A stretch of 64,000 bases of DNA, from NCBI GenBank assembly GCA_965216565.1, contig OZ244170.1:5088001-5152000 (forward strand), in the 5' to 3' direction. The translations under genes were made by a program, and so were the position numbers. Below the pieces are notes generated by a model, which worked only from the letters and a program-made list of their open reading frames with translations, ran no database searches and had not been told where the DNA came from. The number at the start of each line of letters is the position of its first letter. The first letter of the stretch is position 1. Source of the DNA: Bythopirellula sp. Lineage in GTDB: Bacteria; Planctomycetota; Planctomycetia; Pirellulales; Lacipirellulaceae. Positions 52,257 to 55,063 of the stretch are shown here, piece by piece.

Positions 52257-52931
52257 CTAGTCGGTTTGATCCTTCGCACGATTGGCTACCTCAAAGGTGA
52301 CCTGCTCCAGCTCACGTGCCAAATCGACTCCCACCTTGCTGACACCGGCCGGCACCGTAAGGGTCACAGGGGCGAAATTCAAGATACCGCTGACGCCTGC
52401 AGCCACAAGCTTATCAGCGACAACCTGGGCGTGTGGGGCAGGGACTGCCACGAGACCCAACTCAATTTTCTCCTGCGATACCAGTTCGGCTAACCGGTCT
52501 AAATGATGGACATTCACACCATCGATTGAATTTCCCACTTCGCCAGGGTCTACGTCAAACGCTGCGATGATGCGGAAGCCTTGTTTTTCGAATCCTCGAT
52601 AGCCTAGCAAGGCTCGTCCCAGGTTACCGACACCAACGAGCGCGACCCTCCATTGGCGGTCGGTCCCCAGAATCCGCCGGATTTCCTGCACTAATTCCTG
52701 ACACCGATAGCCAATTCCGGGGTGACCGAAATGGCCGAAATGGGCCAAATCCTTCCGAACTTGGGCATCGGTAAAGCCCAGCAGTTTGCCCAGTTGGCTG
52801 CTGCTGATGGTTTCGTTGCCGTCGCCCAGCAAGTGCTGCAACTCCCTCAAATACAGACTCAACCGGTTCACCACCGCATTGGGGATGGAATCGGGGTCGG
52901 GTCGATCTGGGTTGGGCTTAGGGGAAGTCAT
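52257..52931 (-). CDS. rex: Redox-sensing transcriptional repressor Rex
   Basis: RLSLYLR, QVRKDL..FG.FG..GIGY, GVGNLGRAL, GILNFAP. Confidence 0.95.
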   Translation of the reverse strand: MTSPKPNPDRPDPDSIPNAVVNRLSLYLRELQHLLGDGNETISSSQLGKLLGFTDAQVRKDLAHFGHFGHPGIGYRCQELVQEIRRILGTDRQWRVALVGVGNLGRALLGYRGFEKQGFRIIAAFDVDPGEVGNSIDGVNVHHLDRLAELVSQEKIELGLVAVPAPHAQVVADKLVAAGVSGILNFAPVTLTVPAGVSKVGVDLARELEQVTFEVANRAKDQTD

Positions 52932-53364
52932 TCGAGTGGGATCAGGGGAGACACGGAGAGTCATTTCACCCGCGAAAAACCCCAGCAACATTCAGTTCCT
53001 GGGGTGGCTGCCACTGTAAAGCAATGAGATTTAGCCAGCAACCCAAAGCTCATAAGTGCCAATGCCTCGCATAACGACCAAATCGCATTCTGCCATGCGT
53101 TTCGCGGCACGGGCGTAACCCCACTAATCCTTACCTTCGTCAGTTCAGCTATGGACCCAACCGAGGCTGAGGGTCCGGCAAAACGCAACGTTTGGATCGT
53201 AGCGATTGAGAATAGCAGAGAATCAAGCTGGACTCTTATTTTTAGGAGTTCTAGCTAAGGGAGGGAGTTTAGTTAGGCCGAAAAACTGAGTGGATGGACA
53301 TTTTCCCATCTTGACCAAGTTGTGTATTCCCCCACCCAGAAGTGTTACGAAGGAGATCCTCACC

Positions 53365-54882
53365 ATGAGAACCAAGTCTTGTGTGTTGGCTCTGGCTGTC
53401 GTAGCCGTCGCGTTGCTGCAATCCTCAGCATCGGCCGGCTACTGCGGAGCTGCACGCTACAACGGATGTTGTCAGCCAAAGTGCTGCCACGTTGTAATGA
53501 AAACCAAACGTTGTGTGACTTACGAGAAGCAGTGCTGCACTCGTTATCGCACAGTTTACGACCGCGTATGTTACGACAAGGTGATCAACTGTACTCGTTA
53601 CGTACCCGAAACCCGCACCAAGCAGGTCTGCTACACCGTTTGCAAGCCAGTTTGGGAAACAAAAACCCGCAACTACACGGTTTGCAAGCCTTGCTGGGAA
53701 ACGAAAACTCGTCAGGTCTGCTATACCGTCTGCAAGCCAGTTTGGGAAACCAAAACCCGCAGCTACACGGTCTGCAAGCCCTGCTGGGAAACCAAGACTC
53801 GCGACGTTTGCTATACGGTTTGCAAGCCAGTTTGGGAAACCAAGACTCGGTGCTACACCGTCTGCAAGCCAGTTTGGGAAACCAAGACCCGTTGCTACAC
53901 CGTGAACAAGCCTGTCTGGGAAACCAAGACCCGCCAAGTTTGCTACACAGTCTGCAAGCCAGTCTGGGAGACTCGTACTCGCAACTACACGGTTTGCAAG
54001 CCAGTTTGGGAAACTAAGTCCCGCACTGAAACGTACTACGTCCGCAAGGCTGTTCCCTACACGAAGACCATCAACATCAACACAGGTCACTGGGAGCGAG
54101 AGAGCTACCAGGTTCCAGGTCGGACTTACACCAAGCGTGTACGTCAGCCCGGTTCGTGGAAGTGGGATGCTTGCCGATGCAAGTGCGTTTACTGCCCAGG
54201 TCCTTGCTGCACGGTGAAGTGCCAAGGTCCTCCGCGAACTTGCTGCAAGCGAGTTTGGGTGCCTGAATGCCGCACTAAGGAAATCTGCTGCTGCAAGTAC
54301 GTGTGCGAGCCACGCACCCGCACCTGCTGCTACAAGGTGTGCCACATGGTTCCTGAAACCAAGACTTGCTGCTACAAGGTTTGCCGCATGGTGCCTGAGC
54401 AGCGAACCAAGACTTGCTGCTACAAGGTGTGCCACATGGTCCCTGAGACCAAGACCTGCTGCTACAAGGTTTGCCGCATGGTACCTGAGACCAAGACCTG
54501 CTGCTACAAGGTTTGCCGCATGGTACCTCAGCAGTGCAAGAAGACCGTTTGCTACAAGGTCTGCCGGATGATTCCGGAAACGAAGACTTGTTGCTACAAG
54601 GTTTGCCGCATGGTGCCTGAGCAGCGAACCAAGACTTGCTGCTACAAGGTCTGCCACATGGTCCCCGAGACCAAGACTTGCTGCTACAAGGTCTGCCGCA
54701 TGGTTCCAGAACAGCGAACGAAGACCGTTTGCTACACCGTGTGCAAGCCAGTATGCGAGCAGCGGACAATCAAGTGTTACAAGTGTGTGCCACGTAAGGT
54801 TCCTTACACCGTCACACGATGCGTACCACGTGTCACTTGCACTAAGGTGCCAGTGTGTGTCTGCTGCCCTTGCTGCAACTAG
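53365..54882 (+). CDS. Secreted cysteine-rich YTV-repeat protein (505 aa)
   Basis: RBS AAGGAG, signal peptide ending ASA, 9 YTVCKPVWETKTR-type and 9 YKVCRMVPETKTCC-type repeats, strong codon bias. Confidence 0.92.
   Translation: MRTKSCVLALAVVAVALLQSSASAGYCGAARYNGCCQPKCCHVVMKTKRCVTYEKQCCTRYRTVYDRVCYDKVINCTRYVPETRTKQVCYTVCKPVWETKTRNYTVCKPCWETKTRQVCYTVCKPVWETKTRSYTVCKPCWETKTRDVCYTVCKPVWETKTRCYTVCKPVWETKTRCYTVNKPVWETKTRQVCYTVCKPVWETRTRNYTVCKPVWETKSRTETYYVRKAVPYTKTININTGHWERESYQVPGRTYTKRVRQPGSWKWDACRCKCVYCPGPCCTVKCQGPPRTCCKRVWVPECRTKEICCCKYVCEPRTRTCCYKVCHMVPETKTCCYKVCRMVPEQRTKTCCYKVCHMVPETKTCCYKVCRMVPETKTCCYKVCRMVPQQCKKTVCYKVCRMIPETKTCCYKVCRMVPEQRTKTCCYKVCHMVPETKTCCYKVCRMVPEQRTKTVCYTVCKPVCEQRTIKCYKCVPRKVPYTVTRCVPRVTCTKVPVCVCCPCCN
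53632..54033 (+). repeat. Tandem 42/48-bp coding repeat array A (YTV units)
   Basis: 9 units of 14,16,14,16,14,14,16,14,16 aa. Confidence 0.9.
54331..54732 (+). repeat. Tandem 42/48-bp coding repeat array B (YKV units)
   Basis: 9 units of 14,16,14,14,16,14,16,14,16 aa. Confidence 0.9.
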
Positions 54883-54950
54883 TTTGTCGCAAGAGCTGAG
54901 AGAAGTGATGCTTCCTTCATAAGGGGAAGCGAACTTGGTCAGAAAACGAT

Positions 54951-54993
54951 CGGCGGCCCGATTCACTAAGGTGAGTCGGGTCGTCGTTTTTTT
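54951..54993 (+). terminator. Intrinsic terminator of the YTV gene
   Basis: CGGCGGCCCGATTCAC-TAAG-GTGAGTCGGGTCGTCG-T7. Confidence 0.88.
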
Positions 54994-55063
54994 ATGCGCT
55001 AATTGTTATGCAGCACACACTCGCGATTCTTATGAGTATCGCGGTTCAGTACAATGACGTCTA

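Follow-up and report, generated by a model that had tools for sequence, protein, structure and literature searches.

Mirror-ordered repeat arms in a cysteine-rich YTV protein of Bythopirellula sp. and their probable pairing in one long hairpin

How do two repeat arrays of different sequence within one protein come to carry the same irregular series of unit lengths in opposite order? The question is raised by a gene of Bythopirellula sp., here termed YTV-1, which lies in the 64,000-nucleotide stretch of genomic DNA analyzed in this work (the window). It bears on another, four decades old, which concerns the protein fraction of the planctomycete wall, both its composition and its construction.

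YTV proteins (PF07639) are confined to the Planctomycetia (PMC12673574). They are major constituents of the SDS-boiled walls of G. obscuriglobus (PMC5287468) and are among the top matches in wall preparations of T. immobilis (PMC8567305). In P. limnophila, the family member Plim_0937 is essential and its cysteines have been suggested to regulate wall rigidity (PMC10632474); it is mentioned here as a relative of YTV-1, whichever paralog it may correspond to. Planctomycete sacculi also contain lysozyme-sensitive peptidoglycan (PMC4432640), so a YTV mesh would be at most one part of the wall. A contact-based YTV model from a 2021 repeat-modelling study has a modest score and no structural match (PMC8078820). 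Our literature searches, whose coverage was without Mahajan et al. 2020 (Genome Biol Evol) and Hieu et al. 2008, either of which possibly holds structural remarks, found no published hairpin model of a YTV protein.

The YTV-1 gene and its surroundings

YTV-1 (Table 1) starts at an ATG with AAGGAG upstream at 53350-53355 and matches PF07639 at 284.5 bits against a cut-off of 21, while NCBIfam is without any family covering the protein. A first-pass annotation of the window had described the composition as rich in T, V, K, C and Y, and the counts agree (C 15.8, T 13.7, V 13.7, K 11.3, R 8.3, Y 6.9 and P 6.9%). Cysteines make up 80 of the 505 residues, and the encoded protein is strongly basic, with a net charge of +70. 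Judged by eye, a Sec-like N-terminus appears to be kept in the orthologs. Two long open frames on the opposite strand (53425-54966 and 54275-54769, minus) are likely shadows of the codon use of the repeats.

Table 1. Positions, within the window, of YTV-1, its parts and neighboring features
Feature	Position	Strand	Basis or remark
Redox-sensing repressor Rex, divergent neighbor	52257..52991	-	NCBIfam above cut-off
Conserved upstream element	53254..53319	+	Promoter-like motif, short inverted repeat and conserved 3' motif; putative function
YTV-1 gene	53365..54882	+	505 aa, monocistronic; Pfam PF07639 E 1.6e-86, 13 stretches
Likely Sec signal peptide, aa 1-24	53365..53436	+	By eye: basic start, hydrophobic run, A-x-A
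N-terminal Cys cluster, aa 35-41	53467..53487	+	C41 opposite C500, possible single terminal staple
Non-repeat N-terminal strand block, aa 45-83	53497..53613	+	Ungapped in orthologs; partner is the C-terminal block (covariation peak, sum 541)
Repeat array A, 9 units of 14/16 aa, aa 90-223	53632..54033	+	Y-anchored unit lengths
Conserved neck and tip, aa 224-322	54034..54330	+	W243/W298 pair, two symmetric Pro-Gly bulges, degenerate unit 307-322; pLDDT ~77-91 over most
Predicted hairpin turn D268-K273, symmetry center 270.5	54166..54183	+	DSSP loop aa 269-272 in model; D-P-x-x consensus in orthologs
Repeat array B, 9 units of 14/16 aa, aa 323-456	54331..54732	+	Mirror of array A; holds most Cys
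Non-repeat C-terminal strand block, aa 457-497	54733..54855	+	Ungapped in orthologs; covariation
C-terminal Cys cluster, aa 498-505	54856..54879	+	Sequence
Intrinsic-terminator-like hairpin, 16 pairs, with T run	54951..54996	+	Sequence scan

The gene is flanked by divergent rex on one side and, on the other, by the terminator-like hairpin and then endonuclease V. Rex adjoins YTV-1 in 46 of 92 loci, including all 23 from the organism's own family, 9 of 16 from family f14, all 13 unclassified MAG loci and none of 23 from family f30. Comparison by eye with the known motif revealed no canonical Rex operator near YTV-1, and a promoter scan returned no sigma-70 promoter for the gene. Among the public runs listed, no RNA data set carries it, which has no bearing on whether it is expressed. 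Both motifs of the upstream element occur in 19 of 23 own-family loci, and the element is present as a single copy in its own genome. The two arms of its inverted repeat change together and the spacer varies, which resembles a 5' RNA hairpin more closely than a site for protein binding.

Mirrored order and coupled arm lengths

Counted from tyrosine anchors, the unit lengths of array A are 14, 16, 14, 16, 14, 14, 16, 14 and 16, and those of array B are 14, 16, 14, 14, 16, 14, 16, 14 and 16. These values, the two totals of 134 aa and the single 14-14 doublet reproduce what the first-pass annotation had claimed. Ten consecutive proline pairs share one sum of positions (81 + 462 through 213 + 330), and the nine Pro-to-Pro intervals run through arm B in the opposite order to arm A, not as a direct copy, an arrangement expected by chance for 1 ordering in 84. 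At the center, W243/W298, P251/P290, P262/G279, G263/P278 and W265/Y276 all sum to 541, as do C41/C500 and C40/C501 at the termini, which places the symmetry axis at 270.5. The symmetry earlier proposed for the center (about residue 270) and for the terminal Cys clusters thus holds, and the mirror symmetry of YTV-1 is confirmed. An assembly artefact was considered as its source and ruled out. Contigs from a public run tile the gene with zero differing letters, gaps or joints; no single piece spans the gene, and the run may be the source sample. Since the repeat units also differ from one another at synonymous sites, and the same length pattern recurs in 13 further loci of the own family and in one unclassified MAG locus, the pattern is old and inherited.

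Arm lengths in orthologs were measured between an ungapped 56-residue center and ungapped end blocks of 39 and 41 residues, which were located by profile, and the residues in between were counted on each side. The center profile matched 250 of 401 genomes of class Planctomycetia, the named relatives Bythopirellula and Adhaeretor among them, which put the organism within the Lacipirellulaceae, and a YTV match was found in none of 14 control genomes. Family f29 stands apart from this class-wide figure, with the center found at E 1e-20 in 0 of its 40 genomes. A near-complete set of 56 proteins was formed from all center matches in genomes of at most 10 contigs, five more (own genome included) and one named complete genome; seven genomes of family f31 were kept out of it and scored separately, and one of 18 loci in one batch gave no match.

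In 55 of these 56 orthologs the arms are equal to the residue, over 12 distinct lengths from 121 to 301 aa; shuffled arm lengths matched in 12 cases on average, with a maximum of 23 over 50,000 shuffles. One of the 55 (L104) is interrupted near its end by a frameshift of one base, across which its residues were counted for scoring. The lone exception (L099) comes from a single-contig genome and has arms of 145 and 205. Arm length is steady within lineages, at 159 in most of the own family and 121 in 21 of 23 f30 members. On a tree built from the non-repeat blocks only, parsimony requires 15 changes for the left arm, 16 for the right and 16 for the pair. Because the pair needs just 16, all 15 left-arm changes are matched in the right arm and one change is right-only. 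The Gemmata-like f31 proteins differ in outer architecture; with other anchors the same offset was found in 7 of 7, and one of them has lost 32 aa from both arms.

The order of units was compared with anchors found independently in each arm. Mirrored irregular series are present in unrelated families, namely in L117 (15 shared intervals, chance 1 in 1365) and L104 (14 intervals, chance 1 in 2002), and mirrored irregular 14/16 patterns also occur in L048, L021, L055 and L113. A reversed order in another array, of different sequence, cannot arise by duplication within a single array, and we infer that selection on arm pairing is the simplest cause of the mirrored order. The proposal that both arrays grow and shrink in register is borne out by the equal arms, the 15 matched changes and the mirrored patterns, and uncoupled repeat numbers, named beforehand as what would speak against it, were absent from 55 of the 56 near-complete genomes.

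Assemblies of more than 10 contigs differ from the complete set (Fisher p 4e-7), with equal arms in 14 of 27 and unequal arms in 13; two frameshifted rows and one duplicate had been dropped. The differences between unequal arms are sums of 14 and 16. In one near-identical pair, the protein from an assembly of 370 contigs (L024, genome G016) is without one 30-aa block, in arm A only, and its counterpart from a complete genome (L026, G018) is symmetric. In L099 (G303) arm B is 60 aa longer than arm A and the 90-bp blocks are letter-identical; this locus is either a recent slippage, and then a possible evolutionary intermediate, or an assembly error. Taken together, the near-identical pair, the identical blocks and the 14/16 sums point to repeat collapse or very recent slippage, and collapse seems the likely one from the sequences. 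Thirteen of 120 database homologs could be scored with all four anchors (the rest being mostly partial or frameshifted), of which 9 have equal and 4 unequal arms. Very short arms of 41 aa, equal on both sides, occur in three database proteins. A TPR domain is annotated, from precomputed Pfam or the source name, in some homologs (P0021, P0033, P0049, P0082 and P0113) and is C-terminal in the sequences inspected.

The own genome holds two further, unlinked YTV paralogs (G000:C1:4314169-4315650, plus strand, and 3625473-3626933, minus strand), and both are arm-symmetric. Paralog 2 has equal arms of 147-261 aa in 28 of 29 proteins and a Gly/Cys tip loop that varies between 29 and 93 aa; anchors were weak in the one exception, and a partial frame (L177) and a YTV-1 match (L173) were excluded. 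Paralog 3 has equal arms in 21 of 26 proteins automatically and in 25 of 26 after four hand re-anchorings, the exception (L182) being without an in-frame C block, and it is weaker evidence because its length is mostly constant. Paralog lengths within one genome are uncorrelated (rho 0.19, p 0.36, 25 genomes). Paralog 2 is near neutral whereas YTV-1 is strongly basic, a hint of possible co-assembly. Unlike in the own genome, YTV-1 and YTV-2 lie about 6 kb apart on contig C6 of genome G391 (L119 and L174).

Antiparallel register, predicted fold and placement of cysteines

Covariation was calculated as mutual information with background correction in 79 sequences (effective number 49.5), using non-repeat columns only. 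At the center it peaks at i + j = 541 (combined Z 11.2). Between the N and C blocks, which are about 400 residues apart, the same sum stands out as the peak (combined Z 10.6), and its neighbors 539 and 543 reach 6.3 and 9.3, respectively. Sums other than these three, from 525 to 557, reach a Z of at most 2.5 (at most 2.1 for the N and C blocks), and 17 of the 30 top covarying pairs lie at sums 539-543 against a background of 2.7%. In the arrays, shuffling of rungs within proteins (401 rungs, 50 proteins) left excess covariation at three sums, with the maximum at 541 and lower values at 539 and 543. A twisted antiparallel ribbon yields such a peak, accompanied on each side by a flank at a distance of two residues. 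Among other candidate registers, 543 places proline opposite proline and has the best direct charge pairing, yet covariation centers on 541 and 543 is just its diagonal neighbor; the Cys-rich registers 533, 537 and 549 have no covariation at those sums.

AlphaFold2, run on YTV-1 with a 51-row alignment, predicted a single hairpin with strands at 9-218 and 259-468 of the model. These strands, two symmetric bulges and a four-residue turn all sum to 541 in protein numbering. Confidence (pLDDT) is 77-91 at the tip and end blocks, with 77-84 across aa 43-82 of the N-terminal block, and about 40 in the arrays; the pTM is 0.22. A model of an f30 ortholog has the same single-hairpin plan with symmetric strand ends (pTM 0.20). 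The arm prolines fall on one parity in 1480 of 1480 cases (64 proteins), and in 487 of 487 in 21 paralog-2 proteins. This is the parity of the W243/W298 pair, itself conserved in 57 of 64 proteins. In hairpin geometry it is the non-hydrogen-bonded parity, at which a proline is harmless inside the hairpin and removes an edge hydrogen bond.

The single antiparallel hairpin of the first-pass annotation, with about 235 residues per arm and a length of about 78 nm, is supported by covariation and AlphaFold with slightly smaller dimensions. With 3.3 A per residue, about 230 residue pairs correspond to a maximum of about 76 nm, which twist or coiling would shorten, and the arms of orthologs span about 52-122 nm. 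Structure prediction and coevolution, which had been proposed as the check, yield two hairpin models and one antiparallel register (i + j = 541) from tip to ends. We consider it very probable that YTV-1 is a single long hairpin with coupled arms. Fold searches returned as look-alikes only the long hairpins of barrel stems and phage tail tubes, at TM 0.04-0.12 and Z of at most 3.3; matches this weak do not make the YTV-1 fold new. With PF07639 clusters set aside, the ESM Atlas gave just nameless clusters at 0.77-0.82, which are leads only.

The ribbon had further been called disulfide-stapled, and here the evidence points the other way. At sum 541, cysteine faces cysteine in none of 8010 pairs of the arrays, where column frequencies predict about 108; the neck has 0 such cases among 1408 pairs (17 expected) and the end blocks 1 among 2752 (26 expected). 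Given that repeats and kin lack independence, these expectations make the depletion look more significant than it is. No such depletion was found in the tip (40 against 33 expected), and Cys pairs are almost as scarce in other registers (0.001 at sum 531). YTV-1 itself has facing Cys pairs only at its open end (C41/C500 and C40/C501), and the first of them is Cys-Cys in 20 of 64 orthologs. In 14 of 64 orthologs the whole of arm A contains 0-2 cysteines and arm B 15-44. Each repeat unit is amphipathic by face. Since facing cysteines are avoided and arm A is nearly Cys-free in those 14 orthologs, the ribbon appears not to be stapled along its length, which would leave its cysteines free for other molecules. 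An intramolecular disulfide ladder along the arms is unlikely, and cross-linking of molecules by the surplus cysteines is a likely use that fits the sequences better.

Competing readings and meaning for the planctomycete wall

Our preferred account, which we judge as a whole to be reasonably probable, is that hairpin rods are joined by intermolecular disulfides in a wall mesh. After its likely export, YTV-1 would fold back at residue 270 into a two-stranded antiparallel beta-ribbon of about 230 residue pairs and at most about 76 nm. The arms would be held together by backbone hydrogen bonds and by cross-strand aromatic and charge pairs, and their lengths would be coupled because the gain of a unit in either arm calls for a matching gain in its partner, failing which the extra unit loops out. 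The prolines would sit where the missing NH points outwards, sparing the hairpin and hindering growth into wide sheets. The 80 cysteines, mostly in arm B and on one face, could bond other molecules, such as YTV-1 itself, the two paralogs and other wall proteins, and these cross-links may give rise to the SDS-resistant protein layer reported for planctomycete walls. The location, oxidation state and partners assumed for YTV-1 are taken from its relatives.

Arm A of one chain could instead pair with arm B of another in the same register, producing domain-swapped dimers or endless polymers. Length coupling and covariation are blind to the difference between pairing within one chain and between two, alveolins are predicted to form ribbons between partners (PMC12465100), and the long variable Gly/Cys tip of paralog 2 is a possible hinge. 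We nevertheless find such a swap unlikely, given that the YTV-1 tip is fixed in length, that covariation reaches the four-residue turn and that the monomer models close the hairpin with a pLDDT of 86-91 at the tip. The same hairpins might be laid edge to edge in a beta-barrel tube or fibre (a stalk, fimbria or pore-associated filament) with no wall mesh, as the barrel-stem and tail-tube look-alikes and the amphipathic units could suggest. The weakness of those matches, the placement of all arm prolines at a parity that, by hairpin geometry, would remove edge hydrogen bonds, and the recovery of relatives from wall preparations (PMC5287468, PMC8567305) make this improbable. A ribbon stapled lengthwise by intramolecular disulfides, possibly in a shifted register, would draw on sums 533, 537 and 549, which are richest in Cys-Cys (17 at 533 in YTV-1; 0.03-0.04 of pairs pooled). 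It is highly unlikely, as neither end blocks, center nor arrays covary at those sums and arm A has 0-2 cysteines in 14 of 64 orthologs.

Pfam defines YTV as a 43-residue repeat, and the contact-based model of PMC8078820 was attempted on such repeats, which would fit a solenoid or a string of independent domains with equal arrays left by gene history. That reading gives no account of the reverse-ordered irregular patterns, the 15 matched changes or the covariation between N and C blocks; we regard it as extremely improbable and already close to refuted. The rod could also act as a ruler for periplasm width, mesh size or fibre length, a role compatible with the preferred account and in keeping with the steadiness of arm length within lineages. 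It is doubtful in view of the range of arm spans, the 15 length changes on the tree and the uncorrelated paralog lengths, and pairing by itself accounts for the coupling of A and B.

Like the YTV wall proteins of R. baltica, G. obscuriglobus and T. immobilis and Plim_0937, YTV-1 is a Cys-rich PF07639 member with a likely signal peptide. Composition, location and essentiality are described for these relatives; the mirror-ordered arms, the predicted hairpin and the Cys placement come from the present analysis. The best works-like comparison, as an analogy only, is with the alveolins and epiplastins, which share with YTV-1 Val-rich, Pro-punctuated repeats and long predicted strands and which form detergent-resistant meshes (PMC12465100; PMC6212826). 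AlphaFold predicts twisted beta-ribbons for alveolins, either intra- or intermolecular (PMC12465100). YTV-1 differs from them in being likely exported, basic and very Cys-rich and in its exact arm mirroring, and a Pfam scan to E 0.1 found no alveolin (IMCp) domain in it, only YTV and a sub-cut-off Polo box match. Pore-forming toxin stems and the phi29 and P68 tail tubes have the long antiparallel hairpin geometry predicted for YTV-1, but their hairpins hang from globular domains and exist inside barrels; the matches cover at most about 100 aligned residues at an identity of at most about 15% and imply no homology. In Chlamydia, OmcA and OmcB are disulfide-cross-linked envelope proteins. They are likened to YTV-1 by proposed role only, as a Cys-rich layer that would stiffen a PVC-superphylum envelope.

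YTV-1 is an ordinary member of a known family, and its mirror-arm architecture is apparently unpublished. The arms offer a clean example of length change imposed jointly on two distinct repeat arrays, and programmable protein rods might be modelled on the hairpin. In a genetically tractable species, the few class-specific genes that are essential include one for a YTV protein, and the residue-level model (register 541, paired units and free cysteines on one arm) would make the build of the wall testable by paired deletions. Tentatively, and with the odds against it, the Planctomycetia may possess an essential envelope skeleton of single-chain hairpin rods of 50-120 nm woven together by intermolecular disulfides, in which rod length would set the dimensions of the mesh or periplasm and Rex would tie cross-linking to redox state. 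If so, such rods would far exceed any hairpin matched in our fold searches.
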